The notes beneath the pieces are model-generated. The model was given only the letters and a program-made list of their open reading frames with translations, did not search any database and was not told the origin of the DNA. DNA of 57,863 nucleotides. Source: Tubiluchus corallicola. Taxonomy: Eukaryota; Animalia; Priapulida. Of the stretch, positions 7,238-53,169 are shown piece by piece. The stretch's first letter is position 1, and each line of letters opens with the position of its first letter. The position numbers and the translations under genes are program-made. The stretch spans positions 1 through 57,863 of the forward strand of contig JAQGDQ010001166.1 in the NCBI GenBank assembly GCA_030141605.1, given 5' to 3'.

Positions 7238-7282
7238 TTAATGTGCACAAATCCTTCATATTGTTTTTTATATTGTTTACAG

Positions 7283-25795: not shown

Positions 25796-26040
25796 TCGTC
25801 ATCATCATCATCGTCATCGTCATCATCGCCATCACTATCACCTTCATCATTGTCGTCGCCGTCATCATCATCACCATCATCATCGTCATCGTTATCGTCA
25901 TCATTGCTATCACCATCGTCATCGTCATTGTCGTCGCCGTCTTTATTATTATCATCATGATCATCATTATTGTCGTCTTCATCCTCGTCCTTATTGCGTT
26001 GTCGTCGTCGTCATCACAGTTGCCGTCATCAGCGTCGTCT
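25796..26040. repeat. Degenerate (CAT/CGT)n trinucleotide tract
   Basis: Seen directly. It produces the poly-His, poly-Ser and Met/Thr ORFs. Confidence 0.85.
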
Positions 26041-27114
26041 GTCAACGTCACTGCATCAGCAAAATTAAAACATCATAATCATTAATGCTACTCTCATTGC
26101 TGTTGTCGTCAACGATCGTCACTTCACTCTGACATCCATTCGATGAAAATTTTTTGCGTCGCATGTGTTTGTAATCGCACAGGGTACTAAACTGGTCCAA
26201 GGACAAGATGTCATGGTTGTTGAGATTTGTGCTGTCACATAATTATGTGATTTGTCTCTGGAGTTAGAATAGCATAGCTGCAAGCTGATCAGCAGCGTAC
26301 GGTGCAATTCATTGCTAAAAAACGGTTTCGTGACACAAACACAAGCAGGTAAGACCGTAATTCACATATTAACATTACTACATAACTGTTAATCTTTATA
26401 ATTATAGAAATATAATTTCATGTACATTAATTATGAAATATTCACCAAATGATTTATTGATAGATATTTCTATATATCGACCAGCTAACCAATTCAGTTT
26501 TGCGCAGTAAATCATTTCGTGAACCCATCTAACTATTTCAAGATTTTTTGGAAGGGTAACAGTACAACAATTAAATAGTTGCTATTATATATATTAAACA
26601 ATGTTTATTGAATTACTTATTTACATGAGAAGAGTTGAGAGAGGTGATTTATTAACGAAGACAAATTATATCAATGTAAGTTCTTTTTCTACGTTCTTTT
26701 AAGTACATAAAAAGTACTATAGAATAATAAACACAGCATAGTTAAAAAATCACAATTAAAAATACTTCTACAAGACAAATAAAATGAATATTTACACAAG
26801 GAACAGAAAATTAGTAAGCGAAATATGTAAAAAAGGGCTAGTGAGTGTGTATTTCCAATAGGCGAATATATTCCAAGTTAAACTGATACACCAGTATTAT
26901 GAATAAAACTCATTTGATTCATCATTGAATCAAATGATCATTCATTGATCATTTAAAACTCGTATGATTTCATTGCTTGAATTTAAAACTCGCTGACGAA
27001 GGCTAAACGTATTTTTACGTAAAATGACTTTAAAATGATTACAGCCAATTTCGGCGCATATTCTAGATGCTGTGGTAAACAAAAAACTTCGACAATGCAA
27101 AATAGTAAGCCGCT

Positions 27115-27505
27115 TGTGAAAGTTGTAACTGTATATTTTAGGTGCTGCCATCTATTGATTAGTCACTTTAACATTTTACTAGTTAAATTCACCCCGAGTA
27201 CAATTGTTCGGTCCAGTGAATATGCAAACTCACTGGATCTCCCCTATTTTTACTGTATGGGATATGTGAAGCCAAGTTTGTGCATAATTCTCTACCTATA
27301 TAAACTGGCTAGATTTCACTTCTAGCCACTGTCTAATTCTTCGTGATCAGTGCAGGACACTCTGGTCCTCAGTGTAGTTTAACAGTCATGTTACATATAT
27401 CTATGTAGTGTAATAAAAGTATTTCAGTTTTTATGCAAACATGTAGTATAGTGTTTAGTTGTTTTCTACAAGTGTTCAGTTCAACTTCATAAACTAACTT
27501 TCACA
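27115..27505 (+). mobile_element. Solo LTR (BEL/Pao-like, 5-bp TSD), copy 1
   Basis: TGTGAAAGTT...AACTTTCACA with internal TATATAAA and AATAAA. Flanks CCGCT/CCGTT. Confidence 0.7.
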
Positions 27506-27739
27506 CCGTTATTTCGCAATAGCACCAACATTAAAAGTGATCCAGAGGTGACCTAGGGTTCTGTGTTTGGCAACTCTTTTATCATTCTTTTATCATCCAT
27601 CATGCATGTGAATAACTCTTTTATCATTCTTTTATCATCTATCATGCATGTGAATAATTCGCTGAGCAGTTCCTTCAACCAATCGGATAATTTACCAAGC
27701 TCTGTGATCAGAGTTAAACAGGTAATAATTATTGACCTG

Positions 27740-28189
27740 TGTGGAAATTGTAACTGTATATTTTTAGGTGCTGCCATCTATGAACTAATCCTTTTACATT
27801 TTACTAGCGAAACTCACCCCTGGTATAATTGTACGGTCCAGTGAATGCATATTCACTGCATCTCTCCCTATTTTACAGTGATGGTTTTTGTGAAGCCAAG
27901 TTTGCATAATCACCTATACCTGTATATCACCTATACCTATATATACTGACTGGATTTACTTTCTAGTCACTGTCTCACTCTCAATGCAGTGCAGCAGTCG
28001 TGCTATTCATAGTACTCACTGTCTCACTCTCAGTACAGTGCAGTGCAGCAGTCGTGCTATTCATGTTACTGTCTAACTCTCAGTGTTCAGTCTAATAAAC
28101 GCTTTTCAGTTTTGTGCAAATATCTAGTATAGTTGTTTATTCTTTTTCTACAAAGTGATTCATCTACAACCTCAAAAATGACTTTCACA
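27740..28189 (+). mobile_element. Solo LTR of the same family, copy 2
   Basis: TGTGGAAATTG...ACTTTCACA, homologous to copy 1. Flanks ACCTG/ATCTG. Its 3' part is duplicated again at about 28208-28287. Confidence 0.7.
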
Positions 28190-28499
28190 ATCTGGTTGTT
28201 TGTTAAGGTTTTGTGCAAATATCTAGTATAGTTGTTTATTCTTTTTCTACAAAGTGATTCATCTACAACCTCAAAAGTGACTTCACCAAAAGTTCATCAG
28301 AATCGCCGAGAGAATTTTAGTGTGCCGGAGTTAGACAGGTACTTCATGGGTCACGGGGCAATGTACCGGTTGAATGCCTTGGGCCTGCAGTTCACACCTC
28401 ACACTTAGTAACTCACAAAAAGGCTAATGAATTTTATTATAGGCTAATGAATTTTATTATTTTAGATTAAGTTTAAATTTTGAAGAACTCTCTGAGAGA

Positions 28500-28541
28500 A
28501 TGGAATACAAAATATATTTCGCGCTGTTCTTGCTGCAACTC
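28500..28541 (+). CDS. Leader coding exon (first 14 aa of a signal peptide, MEYKIYFALFLLQL) of the small secreted peptide locus
   Basis: AGAATGG start context and a perfect phase-0 donor CTC|gtaagt at 28541/28542. A candidate upstream acceptor ctaatgaattttattattttag ends at 28465. Confidence 0.78.
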
Positions 28542-28834
28542 GTAAGTACAATTCCATTGGTATATTTCTATTTTTTTATTTTAGTGCATTACAGTATTAT
28601 GATTTTTGTAAAAATCAAAATGCTCTTTCCCTGCAATTTTTTTGTTTTCAAATGGAAAACCAAACAAAGCCATTGGTATTATTTTTTTAACCGAGTTCCA
28701 AAAATGATATCACAGCATTTTCAAAAATATTAACATTTACTGAATTTATTCTCGAAATTGGCTCCTTTCTGGTACTTTGCAATTGAGACTTGTTCCCATC
28801 ATAGCTCAGGGTCACTGCATATGCTTGGAAACCG

Positions 28835-28890
28835 AAATTAAGCAACACTGAGCCTGGTTTGTAAACCGACGAGCAACTACCAAGGAAACT
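28835..28890 (+). pseudogene. Degenerate 5S rRNA-like or SINE3 remnant (a similar trace lies at ~31668-31700)
   Basis: GAAATTAAGCAACACTGAGCCTGGTTTGTA resembles the 5S box A/intermediate element region. It is highly diverged. Confidence 0.35.
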
Positions 28891-29202
28891 ATGTCTGGAA
28901 AGTTAAATTTGCAACACGAATATTTATTTCGTCGAGCAAGAATGGGTTTTTAAACGTGGCTAAGACACTTCTGTTGGTTCAGTATCTCATTACTTGCACT
29001 CAAGGTAGGTAGAACTGACTTGGTCCAAGTCAAAACTAAAACTTGTGGGGTCATGAATGGGTCTTGTTCACTTTCGGAATGTTTTTCTACGTATGTATGA
29101 TTGATATTAGCACAAATTGTCCTTTTTTAAAAAATTGTTTAGGTGATTAAAATTTCGACAAATTTATGACGTAATTAGTAGAGCCAATGACGTTCCTTCT
29201 AG

Positions 29203-29292
29203 CTTTTTGTTGTTGCACAGGCAGGGTTTTCATGGGACGACTGTTTTCTCGATTTAGATCGTCGAATTTATGAAACTGAGAAAGAAGTATGA
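29203..29292 (+). CDS. Peptide terminal exon A: LFVVAQA-GFSWDDCFLDLDRRIYETEKEV* (Tyr tail deleted)
   Basis: Acceptor aatgacgttccttctag| in phase 0. Homologous to copies C-G, but a deletion removes the YYEEPYYY tail and the original stop. Confidence 0.65.
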   Translation, partial: LFVVAQAGFSWDDCFLDLDRRIYETEKEV

Positions 29293-29748
29293 TTAAATGG
29301 GAGTGAATCAACATTAATAATTTTTATGACAATTTTAAATCAACCTGGATTATAATTTGGAATGTCTTGTTGATTTTTGTAAAATTTATAAATATCCTTC
29401 AATTATATTTTTGTGTGCACATTAAGCAAATTTTGTCAAGCAAACATTAAGTACAATGACGTTCCAGTTAATGAAGTATTAGGGATGAATTTGAATACGT
29501 AAATCTAATTTAGATGAACATGATTAATTTTTTACATTATAAACATAGAAGAATGGCTTTCTGTATATTAAATGATGATCAAACTTTCAAATTTCTGTAC
29601 CATCGTTGTCATTGTCTGGTCAATATATTGCTGCAACTACTGTACCACTGACATAATCCACAATAGGTAGGACACAAGAATGAGTTTCTTCAAAATTTTC
29701 ATCATCTTTTCGTTTTACTGATCGCCACATCTTGCACACTTTGACATA

Positions 29749-30196
29749 CAGTGGGGGATTTAAGGGTGGCTCCTCAGTGGGGGATTTAAGGGTGGGCCTT
29801 AAATAGTAGCAGTTACAGCACACCAAGTGAATATTTTCTCTGGATTATAAGCTTTAGAACGTTTAGTGGTAGCTTTTATCGAGCAAAAAGTTCCGCATTA
29901 ATGATTTCAGTGTAAAAACGTTTGTGCCCTTTAAGTGATAATTGAAGTTTTTGGCAAAGATGTCGTTGTGCGCAATTATATGCTGTACCAGCGTGTATAC
30001 TAGTATACTGGTGTGTAATTAAGAGTCAAAAGTTTGAGGTGACATAATGAGTTTTAAACTATTGAATTTGCTTGAGGAAATAATAAGAAAAATGGTCTAA
30101 AATGCAGTAAAGTGTATTGCTAGCCGGGGTTCCCCAGACTCCCTAGCTGCTTTTTCATTGGGCCCACCCTTTTTCTAAGGCCTGTATCCGCCGCTG
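29749..30196. mobile_element. MITE (hAT-like termini)
   Basis: CAGTGGGGGATTTA... / ...TATCCGCCGCTG imperfect TIR, with ACATA directly repeated on both flanks. Confidence 0.6.
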
Positions 30197-30309
30197 ACAT
30201 ATGTATGTAGAATTGGAAGATAAAGTATGATTGGTATGTATACGTACCATACAAGCAAGTAAGTCATCTACATCGCCATATTCACGGACTTCTGAGAAAT
30301 TATATGCGG

Positions 30310-30830
30310 TATTAGTTGGCAAACTTCTGTCTCGGAAGACAATGTAGTGTGCGCCAAGAGAGTCAGTTATTGATCACATTGATGGAGCTGCAGTGTCGAC
30401 TGCAGATCCTTGAAGGTCTCCAGGGCGCACACCTGGGCAAGGTGTACGGAGATCCTGAGTTGCCCAGACCGCAGGAACCCCCTCTCTTCCTCCCTGGTGT
30501 AGTCCACAGGAAAGTGGAGCGATACGTTTGGCACCAGGTTGACTGCAGGAGCTGCCGGAGTCAGTGAGCATGCTGCACTGGTCCGCCTTCGGGGCTCCAC
30601 TCCTGATTTGGAAGGTTTACTGCTCTGCACATTGTCGTTGGGTCACTTGACCTCCTTTGACCTCCTTCGCCTTCTAGCCGTTGGCTGCTTTGTGCAGCTC
30701 CTCTGCCTAGTGTCGAGATACAATGTGGGATATGCGGTATTACACGTTTTGTTAGCCAAATTACCCACAACCACGTTTCAGATGGCCCTTGCCGTCGTAG
30801 ATAGTTTGCTTTCCCAACTGTTCTAAATTA
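30310..30830 (-). mobile_element. Probable RTE-type LINE 3' fragment (GC-rich, frameshifted)
   Basis: The minus strand has SWE.., a basic ARRRRR stretch, a decayed Cys/His finger region, and the terminal CATTGTCTTCCGAGACAGAAG..GCCAAC reminiscent of RTE 3' ends. Recognised from memory of the family, not by a search. Confidence 0.5.
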
Positions 30831-31971
30831 AGACATTTGTAGTGAACTACTTAAATAATCCTATTCAAGTTGAGATTGTGATGTCAATGATAAGTTGCAT
30901 CTTAAAGATGTGAATCATAGAAATATATACAGACATCAATTTGTTACGTAATAATAATAGCAATCAAAACCTTATTATGAAGCAAACCTGGATGTTCCCC
31001 TCAGCCACCTATTGTGTAGCAGATGGGAATCTAAAAGGCTTATTTTTGCATTGACTAGTACAGAAAGAAAAAATATATTAAAAAAAGTATATCTTAGAAG
31101 CTGCGAATGACATAACCTAAGTTATGCATTTTGAACGTTAGCAACAACCTGGATGACTAATGCACAGGCAAATAATTTTTCTGCCACATTGTACACACAG
31201 AACAGAAATTATTTAAGCTATCATAAATTTTATCTCGATATATGCATTCAAAATGTATTCACGTTCAAGTGCTACCTAAACTTGCTCCTTAGTGACTAGT
31301 TTACCACTCCAGTTTTATCCCCGAATGTATACTGAGTTATACAAAAAACATTTTAAACGATGAGCATAGTTCATGTGACTTATGGTCACAGGGTCCTGCA
31401 TTGTCTAACGATCATGATATTCTAAGTGTTATCTCAATGTTCTTGGTTCAAATCCAGCCGCAATCCCGATTTTTTAATCATCGCTACATCAGGCACTGTG
31501 TAGAACTAATTCAATTATGATAGTTAAAACACTACCCTAAAATATGAAAACTATAAAAAATCTACTTAGATTTAAAAATTCTTATTGACATCTGTTAGTA
31601 CAATGCTCCAATTTCCAGCACTAATTAAACTGAAACTTATACTTTTCACTAGATGGGTGATGCGAGTTAAGTTAAGGAACCTGAGCCTAGTTAGTAAGCT
31701 TGACCATCAGACAAGCATTTCTGGGCAGTTTCGGCTGCTATATAGCCTCTAACTATTTATCTCAATGAGGGAGATAAATCTGAATGTTTGGCATCTCATC
31801 TTATTATTGATGCAAATCAAATTAGGAATGTTGTCATTCACTAATCAATAAACATTAGGTTTTTAATAGAGTATTACTAGTAAATTACTTATAAACTATA
31901 ATCACACAAAATTTAGCAACCACACTTCTAAGAAAAACATTTGTATAGCTAATGGCTCTTCCTTTTCTTTT

Positions 31972-32073
31972 ATGTATTTCTTCTTGCTGCTCATCCGCCA
32001 TTATTTTCCCCCTTCTGATCGCGAAGTTTATAGAACTGACTTTTCCGATAGATTCTATTATTATGAATATTAA
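31972..32073 (+). pseudogene. Peptide terminal exon B, degenerate (..HYFPPSDREVYRTDFSDRFYYYEY*)
   Basis: Same upstream context (ttgtatagctaatgg..). The acceptor position reads TAT rather than TAG, and VFLLAA is out of frame with the peptide. Confidence 0.6.
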
Positions 32074-32423
32074 AAGGGGCTAGTACCTTTGTCCTTGACA
32101 TCTTATACACGAGCATGACAGTTTTCCCACCAATCCATTCTTGAAAATAAGGGATGAAAACTTTTCCAAACGAATTAAGTTAACTGCTCTTGCTCGTTTT
32201 AAAATTGTTCTTTTTCCAATCATCTTGTACACAAACTTGCACGTGCCCAAACTCGCCAGCATTTAGGCTCCTGCACCTCAAAAGGTTCAGTCTTGGCTCA
32301 GCACCTTATACAGTCGCCCATACAGATTTACGCATTTTGATTTTAAACCTAAATAAAGTTTAGTTACTTAAAATCATGACATTTTTATGAAATAATTAGT
32401 ATAGCGAATGACTCTTCTTGTAG

Positions 32424-32534
32424 GTTTTTCTTCTTGCTCAAGCCGGGTTTCCATATATTGACTACTTTCCGGATTTTGATCGTCGAGTTTATGAAACTGA
32501 TTATTATGAAGAACCATATTACTACGTTATATAA
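32424..32534 (+). CDS. Peptide terminal exon C: VFLLAQA-GFPYIDYFPDFDRRVYETDYYEEPYYYVI*
   Basis: Acceptor gaatgactcttcttgtag| in phase 0, TAA stop, AATAAA at ~32696 and ~32758. Confidence 0.8.
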   Translation, partial: VFLLAQAGFPYIDYFPDFDRRVYETDYYEEPYYYVI

Positions 32535-33991
32535 ACAAGTCTGGAGAAAGAAGGATGATTAAATGGCAACAAATCAATATTAATGATTTTATGTCAATTT
32601 TAATTCACCTTAACTGTTTCACTAAGTTTTTCTAACTTTTTTAAACGTATATGAATGTATGCTAATTAATTACTAATCATACATTTGGGTACACAAATAA
32701 ACAAGTACGGTCAAGCAAATTTTAAATATAATAGGTGTCTTGTAAGTTTGAACTATGAATAAAATTGATGTCTAATTTGGATGAACAATGAATGATTTCT
32801 TTTACATTATAAATATATGCTTTTAGTAAGTTGGACTGGCTTTACCTTTTTTCTGATTAATCTTCGTTCATTAATATTTGCTGGTGAACAAACGTTCACC
32901 ATGTTGTATCATCAATGTTGTTGTCTGTATCATCATTGCTGTCACTTCGTCCATGACGTCATCAACAATATTTACCCAACAGGTTGATAAAAGACACCAA
33001 TAAATTACATTTTTTGAAGTTTTTTGTCATCTTTAAGTTTCAGTAATCTAGACGTCTAACACACTTTTCAATGTTAAATAGAATTCGTTTATTTTACATT
33101 GTATACATACAATAGATGTAACTAAATCATCAACAATGCAATAATTACAAATAAGAAGTAATATATGCTATTACAAGTTTCAGCACTTTAAACACAGGCA
33201 AGAATGCCGTTTCAGTGAATATAATTAGTTTTTAATCTCGCAAAATACAGATTTAAAAATGGTTTTACGTATATAGGTTGAATTAGCATTCTCATTGTCA
33301 TTGCAATACTTAACTTAACCATCACTGCTGAAGTCACCCTCTGTCACCACATAGGTTTATTAAAAGGCACGAGTAATCATGCTCTCCAAAATATAGCTCC
33401 CATGGTCAAGTGAAAGACAAACAACTTTGATGTAATATGCTAGAGTTTCATTCCAAGTCTGAGAAAAAAATTGTAGCATTTGAACTTAGTCGATCAGAAA
33501 GGAGAACAAAGTGTTGGTGCTACATCATGTGTCAATGGCTTTGTTCACAATAGTGGGCTCAGAAAAAATAGATTCAACAGCAGATTAGAGTAGGTTTGGG
33601 AACAATCTGTTCTGGAGAAAAAGGCGACAAAAACATTGGCTTTTGATTTTTTGTTCATCAGCATCACACTTTCTCGCTCAGTCAGTTCTGGGGTATAAAG
33701 AATGGGAATTGCCCCAAATAGGATAATATTACTACAGTTGCTTGTGTTAAACTTTTCAATATTCATTCGTTTTATGCCCAAATTTGCATGTGTCCATATG
33801 TCCAGTATTTAGGCTCGGGCGCCCCACAAATTTTAGTCTTAGCCCTTACACACTCATGCACTGGATTTGTGGGTTTTGGTTTTAAAAGTAACTAATGCTT
33901 AGCTACTTAAGATGATATTTATATATATATATATATATATATTATGATATTTTTGTGAAATAATTAGTATAGTGAATGACTCTTCTTCTAG

Positions 33992-34102
33992 GTTCTTCTT
34001 GTTGCTCAAGCCGGGTATCCATTTGTTGAGTACTTTCCGGATTTTGATCGTCGAGTTTATGAAACTGTTTATTATGAAGAACCGTATTACTATATTATAT
34101 AA
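33992..34102 (+). CDS. Peptide terminal exon D: VLLVAQA-GYPFVEYFPDFDRRVYETVYYEEPYYYII*
   Basis: Acceptor gaatgactcttcttctag|, TAA stop, downstream AATAAA at ~34261 and ~34323. Confidence 0.8.
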   Translation, partial: VLLVAQAGYPFVEYFPDFDRRVYETVYYEEPYYYII

Positions 34103-35550
34103 ATAAGTCTGGCGAAAGAAGGATAATTAAATGGGAACGAATCCATATTAATGATTTTATGTCAATTTTAATTCATCTTAACTGTTTTATTATTTTTCTA
34201 ACTTTTTTAAACGTGTATGAATGTATCTAATTAATTATTAATCATACATTTGGGTACACAAATAAACAAGTACGGTCAAGCAAATTTTAAATATAATAGG
34301 TGTCTTGTAAGTTTGAACTATGAATAAAATTGATGTCTAATTTGGATGAACAATGAATGATTTTTTTACATTATAAATATATGCCTTTAGAAAGTTGGAC
34401 TGGCTTTACCTTTTTTTCTGATTAATCATCGTTCATCAATATTTGCTGGTGAACAAACGTTCACCATGTTGTATCATCAATGTTGTTGTCTGTGTCATCA
34501 TTGCTGTCACTTCGTCCATGACGTCATCAACAATATTTACCCAACAGGTTGATAAAAGACACCAATAAATTACATTTTTTCAAGTTTTTTGTCATCTTTA
34601 AGTTTCAGTAATCTAGACGTCTAACACACTTTTCAATGTTAAATAGAATTCGTTTATTTTACATTGTATACATACAATAGATGTAACTAAATCATCAACA
34701 ATGCAATAATTACAAATAAGAAGTAATATATGCTATTACAAGTTTCAGCACTTTAAACACAGGCAAGAATGCCGTTTCAGTGAATATAATTAGTTTTTAA
34801 TCTCGCAAAATACAGATTTAAAAATGGTTTTACGTATATAGGTTGAATTAGCATTCTCATTGTCATTGCAATACTTAACTTAACCATCACTGCTGAAGTC
34901 ACCCTCTGTCACCACATAGGTTTATTAAAAGGCACGAGTAATCATGCTCTCCAAAATATAGCTCCCATGGTCAAGTGAAAGACAAACAACTTTGATGTAA
35001 TATGCTAGAGTTTCATCCCAAGTCTGAGAAAAAAATTGTAGCATTTGAACTTAGTCGATCAGAAAGGAGAACAAAGTGTTGGTGCTACATCATGTGTCAA
35101 TGGCTTTGTTCACAATAGTGGGCTCAGAAAAAATAGATTCAACAGCAGATTAGAGTAGGTTTGGGAACAATCTGTTCTGGAGAAAAAGGCGACAAAAACA
35201 TTGGCTTTTGATTTTTTGTTCATCAGCATCACACTTTCTCGCTCAGTCAGTTCTGGGGTATAAAGAATGGGAATTGCCCCAAATAGGATAATATTACTAC
35301 AGTTGCTTGTGTCAAACTTTTCAGTATTCATTCGTTTTATGTCCAAATTTGCATGTGTCCAAATGTGCCAGTATTTAGGCTCTGGCCCCCACAAATTTTA
35401 GTCTTAGCCCTTACACAATCATGCACTGGATTTATGGGTTTTGGTTTTAAAAGTAACTAATGCTTAGCTACTTAAGATGATATTTATATATATATATATA
35501 TTATGATATTTTTGTGAAATAATTAGTATAGTGAATGACTCTTCTTCTAG

Positions 35551-35661
35551 GTTCTTCTTGTTGCTCAAGCCGGGTATCCATTTGTTGACTACTTTCCGGA
35601 TTTTGATCGTCGAGTTTATGAAACTGTTTATTATGAAGAACCGTATTACTATATTATATAA
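35551..35661 (+). CDS. Peptide terminal exon E: VLLVAQA-GYPFVDYFPDFDRRVYETVYYEEPYYYII*
   Basis: Same structure as exon D. AATAAA at ~35819 and ~35881. Confidence 0.8.
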   Translation, partial: VLLVAQAGYPFVDYFPDFDRRVYETVYYEEPYYYII

Positions 35662-36683
35662 ATAAGTCTGGCGAAAGAAGGATAATTAAATGGGAACGAA
35701 TCCATATTAATGATTTTATGTCAATTTTAATTCATCTTAACTGTTTTATTATTTTTCTAACTTTTTTAAACGTGTATGAATGTATCTAATTAATTATTAA
35801 TCATACATTTGGGTACACAATAAACAGGTACGGTCAAGCAAATTTTAATTACAATAGGTGTCTTGTAAATTTGAACTATGAATAAAATTGATGTGTAAAT
35901 CTAATTTAGATGAGTGATGAATGATTTTTTACATTATGAATATATGCTTTTAGTAAGTTGGACTGGCTTTACCTTATTCAGGTTCAATGTCATTGTTCAA
36001 CATTTTGGATCTTCGTTGTCATTGTTTTTAACATAGGTTATGGCACCATCACCTCTGTTACAGATCGGTGTTTTAACAACATCAGGAATTATGTTCTTGA
36101 AAATGTAGCTCCCTGGGTCAACTGGTAGCAACTTGAGTTTAAAATGCCAGAGCTTCATTTCAAGTCTCGAAAAAATTTGTAGAGTTTCAACTTAGTTTGA
36201 GCAGAAAGGAGGAGAATGATAGAAACTGTTGGTGCTACATCATGTGTCAATGACTCTGTTCATAAGTATCAGTTTAGAAAAAACAGATTCAACAGCAGAT
36301 TAGGGTAGATTTGGGAACAAATTTGTTCTAGAGAAAAAGGGGCAGGAACATTGGCCCTTGACAAGTCGTACATGGGCATCACACTTTCTCTCAGTCATCT
36401 CTGGAGAATAAAAGATGGGAAGTGTCTTCAAAGTGATTAATATATCAGTTCTTGCTCGTGTCATAAATGTTTGTTTCCAACAATTTTTTGACCAAATTTG
36501 ATTGTGTTCAAACATCGGACTAGTTAAGCCCTTGCACCCCACAAGTTTTAGTCTTGGCTCAGCCCCTTATACAATAATGTATTAGATTTGTTTATTTTGG
36601 CTTTAAAACTAACCAAGGTTTAACTAATTAAAATCACCACATTATTATGGAATAATTTGTATAGCTAATGACTCTTCTTCTAG

Positions 36684-36797
36684 GTTTTCCTTCTTGCTCA
36701 AGCCGGGTTTCCATTTACTGGCTACTTTCGAGATTTTGATCGTCGAGTTTATGAAACTGATTATTATGAAGAACCATATTATTACTATATTATATAA
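36684..36797 (+). CDS. Peptide terminal exon F: VFLLAQA-GFPFTGYFRDFDRRVYETDYYEEPYYYYII*
   Basis: Acceptor ctaatgactcttcttctag|. Has an in-frame one-codon (Tyr) insertion relative to C-E. Confidence 0.8.
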   Translation, partial: VFLLAQAGFPFTGYFRDFDRRVYETDYYEEPYYYYII

Positions 36798-38506
36798 GTA
36801 AGTCTATTGAAATAAGCACGATTAAATGGCAATAAATCAATATAAACGATTTTATGTCAATTTTAATTTGCCTTAACTGTTTTACTGATTACTTTTCACA
36901 TTTCTAAATGTATATTAATGTATGCTAATTAATTACTAATTATGCTTTTGAGTACACATTAAACAGATATGGTCAAGCAAACATTAATTGCAATAGACAT
37001 CATGTAAATGAGACATTCTAATCTCGTGTCTGTCTAATTCGCCTTAGATTCTTTTATTGATTTTTTCCACTTTTTTAATTGTGCATTAAGATGAAAGAAT
37101 TATGTTTTTCGGAACACAGTAATCAAACATTGTCAAACAAAAATTAATTACATCAGGTCTCCTGTAAATGTGAATTCTGAATAAAGTAAATATTTAACTC
37201 TAATTTAGTTGAATGTGATTGATTTTTACATTAGAACTATATGTCTCTAGACAGTTAGATGGCTGTACCTTTTTCTCTCATTCGTCATCAATCAAAAATA
37301 TTTATTAGTGATCAAACCTCCAAAATGTTGTGTCCCCGTATTCACCGTGTTTGTCATTATTGCTGTCACTGCTGAATACTAACGTTGTGCACTATTAACG
37401 CAGGTTAATAAAAAAACTTTAAGAATTATAATTCTCACAATTTTTATCGTCTTTCTCTTTCAATAACCTATACGTCTTGCACTTTTACATAATTATTTAT
37501 ACAGAATTTGACGATGTATACATTCAGCAATAGCAGATAAGAAGTTATATGTGCTCTTAGACGTTTCAATCCCCTAAACACAGACCACAACGCTGCTTAG
37601 ATGAAGATAATTCGTTAAAAATAACATTTCATATTGCAAATATGAGATCATATTTTATGACCTCATAAAATATAGATTTAAGAAAATGGCTTTACATATA
37701 TAGATTGGTATATGTTTCTGTACCATCGTTTTCATTGTCTTTATCACTGTTGCCTTTGTCATCACTACTGAAGTATCGTATATTATCACGTAGGTAGATT
37801 AAAAACACGATTAATTATATTCTTCAAAAATATAACTCCCGTGATCAAATGGTAGAAGAATGGCTACAAGATAATTTATACAAATAGTAATAAAGCAAAA
37901 TAACAATTGTAAAAAGGATTAATGAACCTAGTATTTCTGATAAAATATATGCGCTGTACAATTTCTGTCAAATCAAGATGTAACAATGTAATCTAGAATT
38001 GATTGCAGCTGTAGTGTGTTTAAAAAATGAAGATCATTGCAATTCTAGGCATTCGATACAGTCTCTAGCCATATTAACAATTACCTGTTGGTTTCCTTTC
38101 AAAGCCTTTTCTTCACTGATCTCCTTACCAAAGTATTATATCTATATACTAACTGATAATTACTACAGCTCAACGTATAACATATATGTCGTAAATTAAA
38201 ATGCATTGCTGATTTAACAGTAAACAGAGCTTGTTGTGTCACAAACTTAACAATAGTGTTAATACTTTGTTTACAAAAACGCTTGGCAAACTGTTGACTT
38301 GGATGGATAACATTGGCAATATAAGGTAATATATTAGTGTACTCTCGATATGGGAGGCAGCATAACTTACGCACGGCAATATTCCAGGAAATATCGATAA
38401 AGTTTCAATGACAATTATCACGGTTATACAGTCGCCTATTAGATTGGCTACTTAAAATCAGACATTTTTATGAAATAATTTGTATCGCGAATGACTTTTC
38501 TTCTAG

Positions 38507-38617
38507 GGTTTTCTTGTTGCTCAAGCCGGGTATCTGTGGACGCAGTACTTTCCGGATTTTGATCGTGGAATTTATGAAGCTGATTTTGACGAACACCCAT
38601 ACTACTATATTATATAA
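38507..38617 (+). CDS. Peptide terminal exon G: GFLVAQA-GYLWTQYFPDFDRGIYEADFDEHPYYYII*
   Basis: Acceptor gaatgacttttcttctag|. Frame and length are preserved despite many substitutions. AATAAA at ~38839. Confidence 0.8.
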   Translation, partial: GFLVAQAGYLWTQYFPDFDRGIYEADFDEHPYYYII

Positions 38618-38844
38618 ACGTACCTCCGAAAAAAACATGATTAAAAGCAACAAATTAATATTAATGATTTATGTGTCAATTTTAATTTACCTTATACTGT
38701 TGTATTGATTTTCTTTAACTTTTCATTCCTATACAACTATGTTAAGGTGCCTTAATTATGTTTACTGTACACATTAACTAAACATTGTCAAGTAAACACA
38801 TATTACAATGCGTCGTGATTTTTAAAATGTGATTTATGAATAAA

Positions 38845-39388
38845 AGGAAAACTCTGCGATTTTTCATATACTATCCCATTGTCCAGTATTGTGTAAAGAA
38901 GTATACATTTTGACACAATTAATACTGCAAGAGCTATATACTGCTGATAATTAAATAATAGATTAAAATCTTAATTAACAGCAGGCGAGCCCAACTATTG
39001 ATGACATCACAAATTAACATAACTTTCAACATCAAAATCATTCCACGAGCGTGTTGCACGTGTATGTGTGTTGTACTAAAACTAGGCAACTTTTAAGATA
39101 AAAATTCAAATTTCAAATTTACCGCTGTGCTCACGCGTAAGCTGTCGAACGTGTGCAGTTTGTCACAAACTAACACATGTGAACTGAGAGATGTAGCACA
39201 AGTGTTTTGAACAGTGCATTTCCGAATTGGGAAAATATGTAACAGTGAAGAACTAGTGGCGCGAGCGCAAAAATGTGTTTGTGTGGTAATAAATCTTTTA
39301 CGTAAGGAGTTCTTTAAAAAATAGTGTTTTCTTTCAATATTTTAAAGGTTACTTTGACCTACAGATTAACATTGAGCCCAGTTTTGCT
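38845..39388 (-). mobile_element. Kolobok-like non-autonomous element, copy
   Basis: Reverse-complement homolog of 973-1571. Flanks TAAA / TTAA. Confidence 0.75.
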
Positions 39389-39535
39389 TTAAACACGGAT
39401 ATCATTGTTTTTACATGTTCATTACAGACCAAGATTTACCTGATGCTCCATGTGTACATTGTTTTCTTCGACTTTTATCGAGGATTTCATTGATGAAAGT
39501 GGAGTTGACATTTGAATATTATTATAATAAGTTTA

Positions 39536-40038
39536 TATAGGTTTTACATGTCAAATGTAGACCTGCGTTAACTCGAATGTAGACTTAGGCAGTTCAAATG
39601 TGTCTTGGTAACTCGAATGTAGACTTAGGTAGTTCAAATGTGTTAACAATGTTTTTCAACAAATCTTGAGCGGTTTTGGTAAATCAAATGTAGACACATG
39701 TCAAGTCAAATGTGATATTGGTATCTCAAATATGGACAGGTGGTAAAGCTTAAGGATGTTAAATTTAATCTTCTTTAATTTCAATTTAATAATTGCTCCT
39801 AAGTTAAAATAACAACGTTATAGGCCTACTAATAGATGCACTATCTTTGGTTTATCTTTTTCTAATTTGCACTTAAATAACTTAATTACCGATTTATTCA
39901 AAGTAATGCATCTACATTTGACTTACCTAAGTCACATTTGAGTTACCAAAACACATTCGAAATTCCTATATCTACATTTGACTTGCCTGAGTCACATTTG
40001 AACTTTCCTGTGTCTACATTTGACGTGTAAAACCTATA
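39536..40038. mobile_element. MITE with ~27-bp TIR and repeated subterminal TCAAATGTAGAC motifs
   Basis: TATAGGTTTTACATGTCAAATGTAGAC / GTCTACATTTGACGTGTAAAACCTATA. The motif repeats in direct orientation on the left arm and inverted on the right arm. Confidence 0.8.
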
Positions 40039-40658
40039 GTACTATTCAAGATGCGTAACGGTTAGCACACGTATGCATAGAACATTTATCGTTGTAGATA
40101 TTGTACAGTCTGTTCTAATGTAATTTCACTGTGCAATACGTAGGCTTTCTTACGGTTTCTTTCAGGTAATAATATGCAGGTAAGAATATGTGCCAGTGTT
40201 TAAAAGGGGAGCAGAATCCACATCATTTGCTATTTGAAGGTAAATTCGTAAATCGTATTAAAAGAGAAAATTTTGTAAGCATCTTACAGCATTAGGATGT
40301 TAATTATTTATTAACTTGTCGCAACAATTAATGTTTTCTAAGATAATTTTCTTTGCTCATTAACCTAACGGGATTAAATAATTTGGGTAATTAACATCAA
40401 TGTTAGTTAAGCAGATAATGATAATACAATGCTGTATAGATACTGTAACTTATTCAAAATGACACGTAAATACTGTTAACTATACATACCTGCAAATAGA
40501 GGGCGCATGTATATATATTTCTGCATGTATGGTTATACCATATAAAATTCAAGGCAGTTATTAGTTCTACAGCATTTAGAAATCCTATAGAAGTATATCA
40601 ATATTATTAATTAATTTCGCTGGCATGGGCTTAATATATATATATATATTTAACATGA

Positions 40659-43482: not shown

Positions 43483-44080
43483 AGAAAGACAGGATGATTT
43501 TTTATATAGTACCCCACTCTCAAGCCCGATAAAAAGTACACATTTTAACACAGTTAATATTGCAAAAGCGTTTCTGTCCATTCGATAATAGATTAAAACT
43601 TAATTAACCGCGGGCGAGCCCAACTGTTGATGACATCACAAATTAACATAATTTTCAACAGAAAAAATATTCCACCAGCGTGTTTGCGAAAGCGAAAATT
43701 GAAATACAGTCCTAGTTTAGGAGATTCGGTTTGGTTAAAACTAAGCAAGTTTTAAGATAAAAATTCAAATTTCAAATTTACCGCTGTGCTCACGCATGAG
43801 CTGTCAAACTTGTGTAGTTCGTCACAAACTAACACATCTGAACTAAGAGGTACAGCACCTGTTTTTGTCCAATGCGTTTCCGAAATGCAGGCGCTAGTAT
43901 AGTAGCGAATGGCGAAATGCATGTAACAGCGAAGTGCTAGTGGCGCGAACGTGAAATTGGGTTGATGTGGTAATAATTCTTTTACGTAAGTCATTTTGAA
44001 AAAAAAGTGATATGGTTCCTTTCAATATTTTAAAGAATAGGTTGTTTTACCTACAGTTTAAGATTGGGTCCAGTTTTACT
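43483..44080 (-). mobile_element. Kolobok-like non-autonomous element, full-length copy in GRL intron 1
   Basis: TTAA at 43479-43482 and 44081-44084. Reverse complement of the 973-1571 family. Confidence 0.78.
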
Positions 44081-44856
44081 TTAACCATTCATAGCTGTTT
44101 CACATATCGCAGAATTCAACGACTCATAACCACCTGAACTTCCTTCTAAAATCTGACTCTCCATCTCACTCGGCTCAACTAATACAAGCAAGATTCGACT
44201 AGGTCAACCACAGCATTGTGACAATATGCACGTTATTACAAAGCTTATTTTACTGGTAATAAAGTCACAGCAAAAAAGTCATAGAAGCAAGACACGGTTT
44301 TGGCTAAGAAAAAGACACAGGAAAAAAGCACACCCACTCTGTCCTCATTCAACTCGTGCAATCAGACCACACTATAGCCAAACAAACCAAATCACTAGCC
44401 ATACCAGACCTCAGAAGCCCGGCTAGGTCTCGCCTGGACGCAGACCCACATCTGGAACAGAGAGAAACTAACGACTGACTGACTGACTAATGTAACCTGC
44501 ATCTCTATATATATGAAAGGCAATTTATAATGGGATTAACATTACTTTACATCAAAGTACGTCGTAGCACTCCTATAGAGGGCACTTTACTTAGAATCGG
44601 AAGTGTTTAAGACGTCATAACATCGGTTATAATGGGGGTTGAAACATCGGGCTTCTGAAAAATAGGGCGTACCAATTCTGTCAGCAGGAACCAATAGTTT
44701 CATTCGCTTCGTACGATCAGACCTCACCATAGCCATTCACGACTCTAGCCACACCAGACTTCAGACAGACCAGGCCCCAGCTGGGCCCAGATTCTTATAT
44801 AAAACAGAAAAAAATTCCCTTTCGACGTAACTTCCCCGACATTATCACTATTTTTA

Positions 44857-45090: not shown

Positions 45091-45222
45091 TTATAAAAGC
45101 AATGTTGATAAAATTAGAAGTTTTTTTAAAAATATAACAAAAGTCTACAGTTATCACTAAAAATTTTAAAACATTAACTTCCCCGACATTATCACTATTT
45201 TTACACATCACAGGCAACTTAC

Positions 45223-46284
45223 CGTGGAGTTAACTCGTGCTGCAGCAAGGGACAGTGTCAGAAATACAAGAGACCCCAAAGAGAAGACCCACACAGCGTC
45301 AATACACTCGGTAAATGTCAGGTCTTTGTTCCCTAAATAACGAAGCAGCTTGTAGACGTTGAAAACAACCGCTGGCATATTGGCGATGTAGTGGACAAAG
45401 ATGATCTTGCTGAGATCTCTGTCCAAAAAGGACACGCATCGACAAAGTGATAGGTGATCTTTCCTGTGTCTTTCCAAGTGGTACGTATGCGGCGAGATTT
45501 CTGCTGTTTTCATGCTTTTTGATACTTTTGCGAATAAAGATCTCATTACGTAGCTTACCGTTGTGAAAAACATAACGTTAAGAAACGCAACCGATGCTTC
45601 GAAAAAAGCAACGACAGCCCAGAAATAAGGTAAGGCGCTAACGAAAGCGTGATTCTGTTTCTGAAGTAGCAGGTCGTCCACACTTCTGTTTTCAGATGCA
45701 GAGTGCATAGTAGCAAGGAAATTGTTCGCTTTGAATAGTTCCATTGTACCGCTTCCCAAAATTGCAAAACAGCCCAGGAAAATGTGCAATTTGGCATGCT
45801 TCGAGAAGCTTTCTTCCTCTTTCTTGTTGAAGTTGCAAACGTGGTTTGGGTCGCCTTGCACGTTTTCGCGCCAAAATTTTAAAAACTGCTTCACTCCAGG
45901 CAGGGGATTAAAGAACAAGATGGCTGCCAACGTTACGGCTTGAATGCTTAATATGGTGTAGACTACAGAAGCAGTAATGCTTTCATATTTTTGATTATTT
46001 TCAAAAAAGAAAACCAAGTATGCGACTTTACACAAAAACATCGCCAACACGAACGAATTGTACACCTTCATACATCGTCTAGCGTGAACAGAATAGCCAC
46101 TTGTTTGCTCTGACAATATGTCAAGATCTGCCAAGATCCCTACCAGATGCAAAGCCCAAAAATATGGCTTCAGCACCTTATGCATCGAACCTACTTCATC
46201 TCGCTTTGCCTTTTCATGCGTTTTGGTGCTTTCCATTCCACTAACTTGAATAGCTTGCACTTTCGGTATCACAACCTTACTCAT
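45223..46284 (-). CDS. Gustatory-receptor-like (GRL/7tm_7) chemoreceptor, exon 1; the spliced product is ~435 aa
   Basis: Multi-TM ORF (LKPYFWALHLVGI; RKDHLSLCRCVSFLDRDLS; SLAAARVNST) with donor ACG|gtaagt at 45223/45222. The three phase-0 introns near the C-terminus match the known ancestral GR/GRL architecture. Confidence 0.9.
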
Positions 46285-46911
46285 GTTTTACGGATCACAT
46301 CTATATGCAATGACTCTCCCGCTGGGTAGTTTCTCAGACAAGACCAGCCTATTAAACGACCTGCACGTATTTAGATGACAGTTCATCTAGTTGTCCTTGT
46401 ACATTAACTCATATATCCATCATACTTTGGCAAACTTGTCCATTAATTCATAGTTTACCGTGTAATCAGTAATAGTGGCGCGATTTTTGTTAGTAGTCAT
46501 GCAACAATGTTATCGCTACATTATTTGTTGTTTGTACAGAAAACACAGAATAACTGAATGTGCTAATAACAATCAAAGTCGCTTTCATCAGTATGATTCC
46601 TGCCATCACGCACAGCATGCTTAACTATTTATCCATAAATGTTATGTCCGCCCGTTGAGTAAAACTAGTGCAATTTATTTTGCTACTAAATTTATGGATG
46701 AACACAGGTATTGTTGTTTATTAAAATTTTGTTTTCCAAACGTTTCATCCACTCACAGCTATGAAAATTTTTCAATCTCTCTAAAATTAATATTAAAATA
46801 TCGATATTATTATAATAATTGTAGAATAAGTTCTGTAACATATACAATTTTTTTCTGATGTTTCGTTTCTTTACAATTGTTTGTCTCTTGTATGCAATAA
46901 ATATATTGTAT

Positions 46912-47517
<606 letters not shown>

Positions 47518-47883
47518 AAATAACATAATACCATTTCTCATTGTGTTTATACAAAGTAGAGTATGATGTCGCTAGAATCCTCTGTGGTCACATTTTTCTA
47601 TATTGTTTATGTTGCACGACTTTTTGTTGAGATTCATCAAACACAAGTTTTGTATTTCAGGTCTTACCTCATGGGTTTTTGTCGATCAAAAAATATAAGT
47701 CTATACTGAAGCGAATCAAAAGTTGAGATACAATCAACACTTAGGCCTACGTATACATCTACCATGAATGAATTTACACGACCTAAAGTCTAGAGAAGCT
47801 TATATCGGGAAGTTCGCGTACCGATAAATGTTTTATGTGCATGTATTATTTCTTGTTGTAGCATTAATGTTGTTGTTTACGGC

Positions 47884-48940
47884 AGTTGTTTCTGCAGCTG
47901 TCGTTGTTTCTGTTTCTTTTGCTGTCGCTGATGTAGACAGCATCGTCTGTCGTGATCAGTCATCAGTTGTTTCTGTAGCTGTCGTTGTTGCTGTTACTTT
48001 TGTTGTCGCTGATGTAGACAGCATCGTCTGTCGTGATGAGTCATCAGTTGTTTCTGTAGCTGTCGTTGCTGCTGTTACTTTTGTTGTCGCTGACGTAGAC
48101 AGCATCATCTGTCGTGATCAGTCATCAGTTGTTTCTGTAGCTGTCGTTGTTGCTGTTACTTTTGTTGTCGCTGATGTAGACAGCATCGTCTGTCGTGATC
48201 AGTCATCAGTTGTTTCTGTAGCTGTCGTTGTTGCTGTTACTTTTGTTGTCGCTGATGTACCCAGCATCGTCTGTCGTGATGAGTCATCAGTTGTTTCTGT
48301 AGCTGTCGTTGCTGCTGTTACTTTTGCTGTCGCTGATGTAGACAGCATTGTCTGTCGTGATGAGTCATCAGTTGTTTCTGTAGCTGTCGTTGTTGCTGTT
48401 ACTTTTGCTGTCGCTGATGTAGCCAGCATCGTCTGTCGTGATCAGTCATCAGTTGTTTCTGTAGCTGTCGTTGTTGCTGTTACTTTTGCTGTCGCTGATG
48501 TAGCCAGCATCGTCTGTCGTGATCAGTCATCAGTTGTTTCTGTAGCTGTCGTTGTTTCTGTTACTTTTGTTGTCGTTGATGTAGCCGGCATCGTCTGTCG
48601 TGATCAGTCATCAGTTGTTTCTGTAGCTGTCGTTGTTACTGTTACTTTTGCTGTCGCTGATGTAGCCAGCATCGTCTGTCGTGATGAGTCATTAGTAGTT
48701 TCTGTAGCTGTCGTTGTTGCTGTTACTTTTGTTGTCGCTGATGTAGCCAGCATCGTCTGTCGTGATGAGTCATCAGTAGTTTCTGTAGCTGTCGTTGCTG
48801 CTGTTTCTTTTGCTGTCGCTGATGTAGCCAGCATCGTCTGTCGTGATCAGTCATCAGTTGTTTCTGTAGCTGTCGTTGTTGCTGTTACTTTTGCTGTCGC
48901 TGATGTAGCCAGCATCGTTTGTCGTGATCAGTCATCAATT
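47884..48940. repeat. 81-bp tandem repeat, 13 copies; mucin-like Thr-rich on the minus strand, open Val-rich frame on the plus strand
   Basis: Period 81 (47927 to 48008). The minus frame reads SRQTMLATSATAKVTATTTATETTDD(S/stop), with TGA in 8 of 13 units. Confidence 0.92.
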
Positions 48941-49577
48941 TGTTGAACTAGTTGGATAATTTTACGGGATGTTTGTTCCACTTTTCACGGTCATTCTTAA
49001 TTACACTTCGCCTCTTAATTATCATCAGCTGCTAATTGCGTTAATAACTCAAATTGTCTCAACAACCACGCTGTAACTGTTGCAGCTCATAGGCGTACGA
49101 GGCTAGAGAACTTGGTGGATGGGGTGGGGGTGGGGGTGGTTTGTTGGCACAGCTTACCCAGAGTAAATGAAAAGTAGTTGTGAAAAGCGCTCATCATCAC
49201 AATCTGAGGCAGCGTGAATGTATTTTAGCACCACGAGCTGATTATTTTTGTTGCTTCAAAATTGTTTATAGTTCATATCAAACACGTATTAATAGTTCTT
49301 ATGTCATAAGACTTATTAATATAAGCGAATAAAACTTATACTCTTTAAACTTAATGATTATTATACATTGTTCAAGTTAGACACATCACAGAAGAATCTT
49401 TATCCTTTCGTTAGAGCTCCCATAGATATTGCCTAGTTGTGAATTTCTAGTTGCACTTATAGTTTAGCTTGCAACAGACGTATTTGCCCAGAACAGTGTA
49501 TGTTTTTATATGAACTAACACTGATTGTCTGTCTTTTATTATGATGGTCAATGTTTTTAAAAAGGCAAAATAAGTAT

Positions 49578-51453: not shown

Positions 51454-52910
51454 ATGAGAGTAATCGTCGTGATACTTGTGATAGTGGTTTCAGTGACGAG
51501 TCGTGAGTATACGCCGAGACAAACCTTCGCTGTTTATGGTACGTCCGTTTACGAAGAGCCGCCATACGAAGAAGCCCCCGTAAAGCCTGGCTTCTACATG
51601 GACGTGCTACCCAACTCTGCAACTTACGATCAACCATCTAGTAACGTGTACGACATACCACAAAGCTACACCAGTTACTCAAAAACTGGTTATCAAGATC
51701 CTCCAAAACCTCAAGGGTCCCTCCCGTCTTATGAACAAGTGCAAAATTACGAAGGACCGCAAACGTCTTATGATCTACAACCTTCTTATGAACAAAGTCA
51801 AGATTACGAAGGACCGCAAACATCTTATGATCTACAACCTTCTTATGAACAAAGTCAAAATTACGAACAGCCGCAAACGTCTTATGATCTACAACCTTCT
51901 TATGAACAAAGTCAAAATTACGAACAGCCGCAAACGTCTTATGATCTACAACCTTCTTACGGACAAAGTCAAAATTACGAACAGCCGCAAACGTCTTATG
52001 ATCTACAACCTTCTTACGGACAAAGTCAAAACTACGGTGATCGACAAACTTCTTACGGGACAGAGTTATCTTACGAGCAACCTCAACATCGGTCGATTTC
52101 CCACACTTATAAAGAACCTAGTTATGAGCCGCAGCAAGAATCTTATGGGATAAATCCCGTCTACAAACAACCCCAGGGTTATCACGAACAACAAAAATCT
52201 TACGTGCTACAAGGCACTTCTTATGAACAGCCCAGAAGACGTCAAGTAAATGTTTACGATAGCAGACCTTATGAGCAAAATTCTGTTCTACAAGATACAA
52301 GTTACGAAGTTGAGCTTGGCTATCAACCAGAAAGACAGACTTACTCAGATTATGACGATAATGCTGTTGATACGTACCAAGTCAAGTACTCAAAATCAAA
52401 ATCACCTTATACAAGGCCGAATTATTCTTATATCAAACCGAAAACTACAACGTACAGCTCTCAAATACATGCGCAAATTCCCCAAGACCTCAAGGCACAA
52501 CAGGCAACGTACTCAATAAAACCAAAGTATCCCCAACGAATTAACTCTGCTGCCAAACCACACTATAACAGTAACAAAGACAAATTTACGTATCCGTTAA
52601 CGCAATCCATTTCCGTCGCCGAAAAAGCAAAATATCCTTTAGCTCAGCAGCGCTCCTCCCCCTCCTCCTCCTCCTCCTCCTCCTCCTCGGGTGGTCACCA
52701 GCTGCCAGAAAAGTATACCAAAACACCGGAATACTTTACAACCACCAGCTATGGACCGATCAGAGTAGGAACCCTCGCCGGAAAAGGACAGAGAAGCAAC
52801 GGTAACAGCTTTCAGCGAAGTGGAAAAGCGAAGGGAAGTCTTTATGCTGTGGACACGGCCACGGCAGCGGAAACGGCTGCAAAACGGAGAGGATATGAAT
52901 ACTATTACAG
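51454..52910 (+). CDS. Secreted Tyr/Gln/Pro/Ser-rich repetitive protein, main coding exon
   Basis: Signal peptide MRVIVVILVIVVSVTS. About 5-6 copies of the 19-aa unit LQPSYEQSQNYEQPQTSYD. Long stop-free frame with donor AG|gtaaga (phase 2) at 52910/52911. Confidence 0.85.
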
Positions 52911-53169
52911 GTAAGATTTAATCATGGGTTGAACTCGCGCCAAACAGCAGTTTTCATGGCCTTATTTTCTGCACTACTACCTATAGGAAACCAACCAACT
53001 AATGATAAAGAACAGCAGAATGTGTAATTGAAGGTTTCACAGTTAATGATATTAATGACATCTTCTACTAGCTACTAACAACATAATGAATGTACCAATG
53101 TAAATAGCACTGCTTACCCTATTATATTACATGTAATGCAATCATTGTGTGAATAAGGATGATATGTAG

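Follow-up and report, generated by a model that had tools for sequence, protein, structure and literature searches.

Can one signal-peptide exon serve a whole series of downstream last exons, each encoding a different small secreted peptide? The question is raised by an array of short duplicated exons in contig JAQGDQ010001166.1 (assembly GCA_030141605.1) of the priapulid Tubiluchus corallicola. The window analysed is this whole stretch of 57,863 nucleotides (nt), animal DNA that is AT-rich and carries many repeats; all coordinates refer to it, and all features of the array lie on the forward (+) strand. An earlier note on this DNA had placed six intact exons and one degenerate exon behind a single leader exon. 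All of its exon coordinates hold, and protein and DNA profiles recover seven paralogous exons and no more across the window, all on the + strand: six intact (A and C-G) and one decayed (B). We read them as alternative last exons of one gene. Two or more of them are probably used, and the array is likely to be one transcription unit, in which the leader donor would join one acceptor and the ATTAAA of the chosen exon would end the message. The parts of the array, with the lengths of the mature peptides in amino acids (aa), are as follows.

27115..27730 (+): upstream copy 1, putative promoter or non-coding first exon; TATA-like sequence at 27297, donor at 27722 (use presumed)
27740..28345 (+): upstream copy 2, putative promoter or non-coding first exon; TATA-like sequence at 27938, donor at 28339 (use presumed)
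28466..28541 (+): shared leader exon; 34 nt of untranslated region, ATG at 28500, 14 codons, phase-0 donor at 28542 (GTAAGT)
29203..29292 (+): last exon A; 22-aa mature part without the Tyr-rich tail, owing to a 45-nt gap in the alignment with C; ATTAAA at 29292
31920..32071 (+): decayed copy B (profile match 31920-32065); acceptor AG lost, frame broken by frameshifts, 3' flank missing
32424..32534 (+): last exon C; 29-aa mature part; ATTAAA at 32558
33992..34102 (+): last exon D; 29-aa mature part, one base and one residue from E; unit an E/C chimera; ATTAAA at 34126
35551..35661 (+): last exon E; 29-aa mature part; ATTAAA at 35685
36684..36797 (+): last exon F; 30-aa mature part with one extra codon; ATTAAA at 36821
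38507..38617 (+): last exon G, the most distal; 29-aa mature part, no Arg-Arg, no selector detected; ATTAAA at 38640

Every intact exon has a phase-0 AG acceptor (29203, 32424, 33992, 35551, 36684 and 38507), follows TAG and opens with four mostly hydrophobic residues and then Ala-Gln-Ala-Gly (xxxxAQAG). The conserved phase-0 acceptors, the xxxxAQA motif and the mature lengths of 22 and 29-30 aa were recomputed and agree with the earlier description in 6/6 copies. The exons are also unreadable unspliced, as had been claimed, because an in-frame stop lies immediately upstream in all six. The donor of the leader is in the same phase (0) as all of the last exons. Its codons cover the n-region and most of the h-region of a predicted signal peptide (mean hydropathy 2.2 over residues 5-14), and its GTAAGT ranks 15-17 among the 764 GT dinucleotides in 26000-38700 by a heuristic splice-site matrix. 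By the same heuristic matrix, the acceptors of C-G rank 5-9 among 634 AG dinucleotides and that of A, the weakest, ranks 64.

At the two ends of the gene the earlier description needs correction. The position and donor of the leader exon stand, but it is an internal exon and not the first one, being preceded by an acceptor of its own (28466) and a CTAAT branch-like site; a further donor lies upstream at 28339. The two upstream copies (27115-28345) are tandem, 76% identical, and keep both donors in register; a gene with a duplicated upstream region may also use alternative starts. Downstream, the AATAAA that had been noted does follow five of the six intact exons within 700 nt, but its positions are not homologous. 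The invariant signal is ATTAAA, found at the homologous position in all six, 0 nt (A) or 23-24 nt (C-G) past the stop. A donor-like GTAAGT after the stop of F made this copy a candidate non-terminal exon, which was rejected; the motif is missing in C, D, E and G, and the exons are therefore treated as terminal. Separately, exon A contains a strong in-frame acceptor at 29221 (heuristic score 5.2 versus 1.4 for A's own), use of which would remove six signal-peptide residues from the A product.

What, then, was duplicated? The intron of A aligns in the forward direction with the units only over its last 65-73 nt before the acceptor, and the inter-exon intervals align with the 3' flank of A. Judged from these alignments, the duplicated unit is about 65-73 nt of intron including the acceptor, the exon and the 3' flank, with the leader excluded. 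A homologue of the leader is absent from all seven intervals tested, where the alignment is no better than with resampled DNA (p 0.12-0.71). The earlier statement that no leader lies inside the units is thereby confirmed and, from sequence, the alternative of an ordinary gene family refuted. The range 28600-38506 holds 89 phase-0 segments from ATG to GT, and the donors of the 13 hydrophobic ones all score below 0 (heuristic). A leader-like tblastn match at 16583-16542 (-) was rejected, having neither an ATG nor a donor.

The proposed sequence of events is as follows. Transcription would start at the duplicated upstream promoter or promoters, the leader would be spliced to one last exon per transcript, and each copy would end at its own predicted polyadenylation (poly(A)) signal and yield a different small secreted peptide. 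Cleavage of signal peptides follows the -3/-1 rule; here, 14 leader and 7 exon residues would together form a signal peptide that we infer to be cut after Ala-Gln-Ala, so that the constant exon would leave nothing in the mature product. Exon A (nearest, weakest acceptor) and exon G (last, no selector) would be the defaults.

How would one exon be chosen among six? A candidate for the switch lies in the intron after the leader, as a short element that could act as a docking site for sequences preceding the exons, given below with their Watson-Crick and G-U pairs and duplex energies.

29028..29051 (+): candidate docking site, lying 152 nt upstream of exon A in the intron that follows the leader
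32275..32298 (+): candidate selector before C; 18 Watson-Crick and 2 G-U pairs of 24, -18.6 kcal/mol
33821..33844 (+): candidate selector before D; 18 and 2 of 24, -22.7 kcal/mol
35386..35409 (+): candidate selector before E; 18 and 1 of 24, -22.0 kcal/mol
36536..36559 (+): candidate selector before F; 22 and 1 of 24, 17 consecutive pairs, -35.7 kcal/mol

A first pairing test, which looked for a single intron tile pairing near C, E, F and G alike, gave no significant result (4/25 nulls) but brought out one very strong single duplex. The docking element is reverse-complementary to the F selector at 22/24 positions plus one G-U (blastn E 0.004), and the selectors of C, D and E, at homologous places, are each complementary to it at 18/24. 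Among all 24-mers of the window, its best four complements are those preceding F, D, C and E. After correction for choosing the best tile, a match as strong as that to F was reached by 0/153 real segments and 0/400 resampled introns, and the summed match to C, E and F by 0/153 and 1/400, respectively. TA microsatellites excepted, the docking-F pair ranks first among the long-range inverted repeats of the locus. For comparison, background duplexes over 327 tiles average -13.9 +/- 3.0 kcal/mol, with a minimum of -21.9; energies over a wider span are -19.4 for G and -15.1 for B. If the pairing operates, it would loop out the intervening exons and favour C, D, E and, above all, F.

Several results count against such a switch. 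The C duplex, at -18.6 kcal/mol, is weaker than the 4% of the 327 background tiles that reach -20, and before G no selector was found (11/24 ungapped, p 0.51). The changes in the selectors of C, D and E relative to F keep pairing in only 2/9 cases and break it in 7/9, invariance within the selectors (16/24) exceeds that of the surrounding intron (136/270) only at p 0.09, and the four selectors are related by descent and come from one genome. A different intron tile (28826), pairing near the exon starts of C, E, F and G, was rejected since 4/25 nulls equalled it. We regard a functional docking/selector pairing as possible, if somewhat short of probable.

It is quite plausible instead that the exons are alternatively used but chosen by splice-site and poly(A) competition alone. 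The complementary element would then be neutral, a relic in the form of a small inverted copy or of a piece of some dispersed repeat; this alternative concerns the switch and not the architecture. A short palindrome at about 29015-29031 overlaps the 5' end of the docking element, and such a palindromic junction suggests an origin by inverted duplication; to a relic would also belong the seven broken pairs, the missing selector of G and the homology by descent of the C-F selectors, which are hence not independent. Scanning can suffice for 3' clusters, according to a study of Drosophila genes (PMC6191721). A mere relic is harder to square with the element matching F at 30/34 aligned bases (p 0.004) and failing to match the arm beside it (p 0.37), with the rest of the intron sharing no forward homology with the stretches upstream of C, E and F (6 tests, p 0.17-0.77), and with the place and orientation of the element, which are those of known docking sites. 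The docking element itself has the appearance of a selector region copied in inverse orientation.

Joining these parts, we can sketch a Dscam-like peptide library, a speculative reading that we offer with reserve. A lone signal-peptide exon would serve an exon-only array of cassettes, each encoding an entire mature peptide whose N-terminal segment changes fast; a recent docking site, arising by inverted duplication of a cassette's intron, would select a single cassette for each transcript through competing RNA pairing across distances of up to 7.5 kilobases (kb); and unequal crossing-over would copy cassette and selector together. If true, a small locus would give rise to a whole family of orphan secreted peptides overlooked by gene finders, which would miss them because no exon exceeds 37 codons and none is readable unspliced. 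The locus would also be a compact, minigene-sized model for the origin of docking-site/selector switches and for the growth of an exon array with its control elements. The gain would be a clear-cut extreme example together with a new family of peptides, the principle itself being known.

How many copies are real? The D unit resembles E as far as about 34250 and C from 34260 onwards, and its exon differs from that of E by one residue. It is an E/C chimera, made by recent unequal crossover or by a haplotype mis-join. That D is an assembly artefact, two haplotypes having been joined at the similar 3' flanks of E and C so that only five copies are real, is a doubtful explanation that has to be kept in mind: the switch from E to C at about 34260 fits it, as does the difference between the C-D and D-E intervals (10/1022 columns), which lies within ordinary invertebrate heterozygosity. 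Recent unequal crossover, common in such arrays, makes an identical chimera. The earlier suggestion that the array is still expanding is thus only partly upheld; D and E do differ by one residue, but the argument rests on D, a possible mis-join.

If the cassettes are used, selection should have left its mark. In the pairs C-F, E-F and C-E, the exons show 8, 11 and 9 differences in 111 bases (7-10%) and the pooled flanks 165/592, 210/879 and 120/605 (20-28%), so that the exons are more conserved (Fisher p 3e-7, 3e-4 and 1e-3). The last 45 intron bases show 4-7 differences among C, E, F and G, against 24-33% in the upstream introns, and 24 of the last 30 intron bases are invariant. Within C-G, the sole exon indel is 3 nt, a whole codon; the E-G pair alone was aligned with two 4-nt gaps. 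In neutral simulations at flank rates, the AG, frame, cleavage residues and ATTAAA were all kept in 0/20000 runs; at exon rates they were kept in 19/20000, and in 172/20000 without indels. Between A and C, 3 of 3.3 synonymous and 0 of 8.7 non-synonymous sites have changed in the AQAG segment, and the ratio of non-synonymous to synonymous rates (dN/dS) of A versus the rest is 0.49-0.58 in frame 0 and 0.82-1.43 in frame +1. The variable columns cluster at the start of the mature peptide (11/27 in 18 nt, permutation p 0.04). Together, these results support selection on splice acceptors, frame and poly(A) signals.

Copy B indicates what may become of a copy under less constraint: it has lost its AG acceptor, its frame and its 3' flank. 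Aligned with the intact copies one by one, it shows 42-47 differences in 140-161 columns and 6-9 gaps. It is nearer to F and C than to A. Copy trees have support of 30-94 and differ by segment, so no duplication order is claimed beyond B being nearer to C-G than to A.

The same comparisons, and the nature of the material, also hold much that speaks against a set of functional alternative exons. The gene structure, including every junction between leader and last exon, is read from DNA alone. The expression search returned one run (share 0.00), whose 28 contigs covered 5/30 bins, none of them within the exons, and so speaks neither for nor against expression. Six leader-like ATG-to-GT segments occur in the window by the heuristic used above, and frame +1 is likewise open through the exon in C-G. 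The excess of exon over flank conservation is not seen for C-G, F-G and the four pairs with A (p 0.18-0.59); exons G and A are no better conserved than their 3' flanks in 6/7 pairs. Variable columns among C-G fall evenly on the three codon positions (9/9/9), and pairwise dN/dS within C-G is about 1 (0.54-2.05 in the 9/10 pairs where it is defined). A dN/dS of about 0.5 versus A is also expected from one constrained and one neutral branch. Codons 17-25 have no synonymous change in 4/4 pairs, synonymous sites being as conserved as non-synonymous ones, which suggests conversion or constraint at the RNA level (splicing). The neutral simulation assumed four independent lineages and ignored gene conversion, which could preserve silent copies. 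Codon-level purifying selection is visible only against A, not within C-G.

These points alter the earlier account in three ways. Its claim of mainly conservative substitutions in C-G fails on codon position and dN/dS. The claim of a kept frame beside drifting flanks survives for the 3-nt indel and for C-F, E-F and C-E, but does not extend to C-G, F-G and the pairs with A. The single gene with alternative last exons keeps the refutation of an ordinary family and the selection on acceptor, frame and poly(A) signal in its favour and gains from the candidate docking/selector pairing, which the earlier account had not noticed, but lacks codon-level purifying selection within C-G.

Might only one last exon be used, A or one of C-G, the rest being silent partial duplicates kept similar by gene conversion and unequal crossing-over? 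We consider this unlikely. It would account for the dN/dS of about 1 and the nil codon bias within C-G, for synonymous sites conserved like the others, and for an exon A with no Tyr-rich tail and the weakest acceptor; exchange between units does happen, because D is a recombinant and the 3' flanks of C and E are 91% identical. Silent copies would not explain why conservation peaks at acceptor, exon and ATTAAA while the upstream introns diverge by 24-33%, or why the G exon, about 20% different from C and F, still keeps all of the signals; B shows the fate of an unconstrained sibling, and a docking-type complement would be purposeless.

The weakest alternative, an ordinary tandem gene family with a promoter and a leader exon in each unit, can draw on TATATAAA at the stop codon of C-G, on a promoter region weakly similar to the C-D and D-E intervals (p 0.05 and 0.03), on similarity of intron 2 to the DNA before B (p 0.005) and on an ATG segment, some 290 nt upstream of D and of E, that ends Leu-Leu-Gln-Leu-Leu, but is very improbable in view of units that hold no leader homologue, ATG segments with donor scores near -6 before D and E and closed or different before C and F, intervals that stem from the 3' flank, and a B-to-C spacing of only about 350 nt. 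The similarities belong to the four of 14 remaining interval tests with p 0.005-0.05 (intron 2 versus the DNA before B and after G, promoter versus C-D and D-E), which come from 21 tests in total and are weak at that number. As an observation apart, the Ile-stop end of C-G spells a TATA-box-like TATATAA (32528, 34096, 35655, 36791 and 38611), with no leader behind it.

With alternative last exons as the preferred reading, what might the peptides do? They are acidic (6-7 Asp+Glu) and, except for one Cys in A, free of Cys. Those of C-G contain 10-12 aromatic residues among 29-30, of which 6-8 are Tyr, and Arg-Arg is present in 5/6 and lost in G. No amidation glycine precedes a basic site in the peptides, and no similarity to a known neuropeptide family was seen. 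Searches returned 0 matches among 1.84 billion representatives for peptide homologues, 0 Pfam families for the three exons scanned of six, 113 pattern matches in metagenome contigs with 0 confirmed, 0 exact DNA matches, a best Atlas match of 0.80 (under the lead level of 0.9), and four PDB matches at E 0.38-1.7, judged to be chance. The word-index protein search, which has a 40-residue minimum, was applied to the neighbouring open reading frames (ORFs) only, the peptides being shorter. Tyr-rich secreted peptides are often cross-linked or adhesive matrix components. Our leading suggestion, held tentatively and somewhat short of probable, is that the array peptides help to build or cross-link an extracellular secretion (cuticle, tube, glue or egg coat); the first 6-8 mature residues would then be the varied part. 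A signalling peptide processed from a prohormone cut at Arg-Arg is unlikely, and an effector of the sulfotyrosine type is rather more of an outside chance.

Is the design new? A constant front with a variable last exon is already known for secreted peptides, from the neuroparsin gene of Locusta migratoria. There, five mRNAs have two common coding exons and one specific exon each, every exon is supported by reads, and the product is a cysteine-rich hormone (PMC4237046). The array is likewise a putative secreted-peptide gene with shared first coding sequence and one specific exon; unlike in neuroparsin, the shared exon would contribute only 14 signal-peptide residues and the variable exon the whole mature product, known from DNA alone. 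No sequence relation was found between the array peptides and neuroparsin. Word searches of open-access text found no case of a shared exon that is a partial signal peptide combined with last exons that are the entire product. The array is distinctive in that the variable exon is, as predicted, the whole mature peptide, in its orphan peptides and in the candidate RNA switch.

For the switch, the closest parallels are the 3' variable regions of Drosophila PGRP-LC, CG42235 and Pip, which have a docking site and selectors, conserved in 12 species and proved by compensatory mutations; the last PGRP-LC cassette is not activated by pairing (PMC6191721). In both settings one upstream element is reverse-complementary to sites before tandem 3' cassettes, the selectors are duplicated along with the cassettes, and G, with no selector, parallels that last PGRP-LC cassette. 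The array differs from these genes in being seen in one genome, with no covariation, and in having cassettes that are single exons encoding a whole peptide. Set beside tandem alternative-last-exon genes in general, it has a shared in-phase upstream coding exon, units with no upstream exon of their own, and an acceptor, a stop and an own poly(A) signal (its use presumed) in 6/7 copies. Set beside docking/selector systems, it has a complement beyond chance after the constant exon, strongly for F and moderately for C, D and E; a selector before every downstream variable exon is not present, G being the exception.

Two other systems resemble it in part. Serpin 1 of Pteromalus puparum produces many isoforms from one gene through alternative exons at the 3' end (PMC10620052; also PMC12758981). 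As in the array, a secreted product is diversified at its 3' end, but serpin 1 is a large protein that stays constant except for its reactive-centre region (PMC10620052). In the skin peptide cluster of Silurana tropicalis, with cpf-St4 and cpf-St5, one gene borrows the terminal exon of its neighbour (PMC3731216). A signal-bearing front end is joined there too to a paralogous terminal exon in a tandem cluster; unlike the array, it is a cluster of whole genes with one cross-gene splice and not an exon-only array (PMC3731216).

Around the array, Rfam gave 0 matches in 26500-40500. The stretch 29750-31900, between the 3' flank of A and B, has little homology to the other units and is possibly an inserted element; within it, about 30350-30830 is GC-richer and holds two short ORFs with no Pfam match. 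A dispersed repeat of about 600 bp, 71-72% identical between copies, lies just past G (38838-39395) and at 969-1578 and 43496-44087.

At 51454-52914 (+), 13 kb downstream, a 486-aa ORF has a hydrophobic N-terminus, 12.6% Tyr, and Gln/Ser/Pro-rich repeats. An acceptor lies 35 nt before its ATG, compared with 34 nt in the array's leader exon. The first mature residues of the ORF product agree with D at 11/21 positions, ungapped (BLASTP E 0.039; profile E 5.6), with shuffle p of 0.005-0.03 for C, D and E, 0.01-0.08 for F and none for A and G. The protein search found no homologue of it; its Atlas neighbours are arthropod low-complexity and cuticle-type proteins (0.75-0.82, leads only).

Three further ORFs and a satellite complete the picture of the window. 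An ORF at 7222-7998 (+) resembles rhodopsin-family peptide receptors, with best matches of 32-40% in molluscs and insects to proteins named QRFP-, orexin- or NPFF-like receptors. An intronless ORF at 45208-46287 (-) is gustatory-receptor-like (PF06151, E 2e-7), with a null protein search. An ATG-started ORF of 372 aa at 47828-48946 (+), with 81-bp Val/Ala/Ser-rich repeats, is open on the + strand with stops on the - strand and is either a coding repeat or a minisatellite; it has one Pfam match under the cut-off. A tandem satellite of 32-bp units, more than 100 of them at about 93% identity, occupies 8935-12500.

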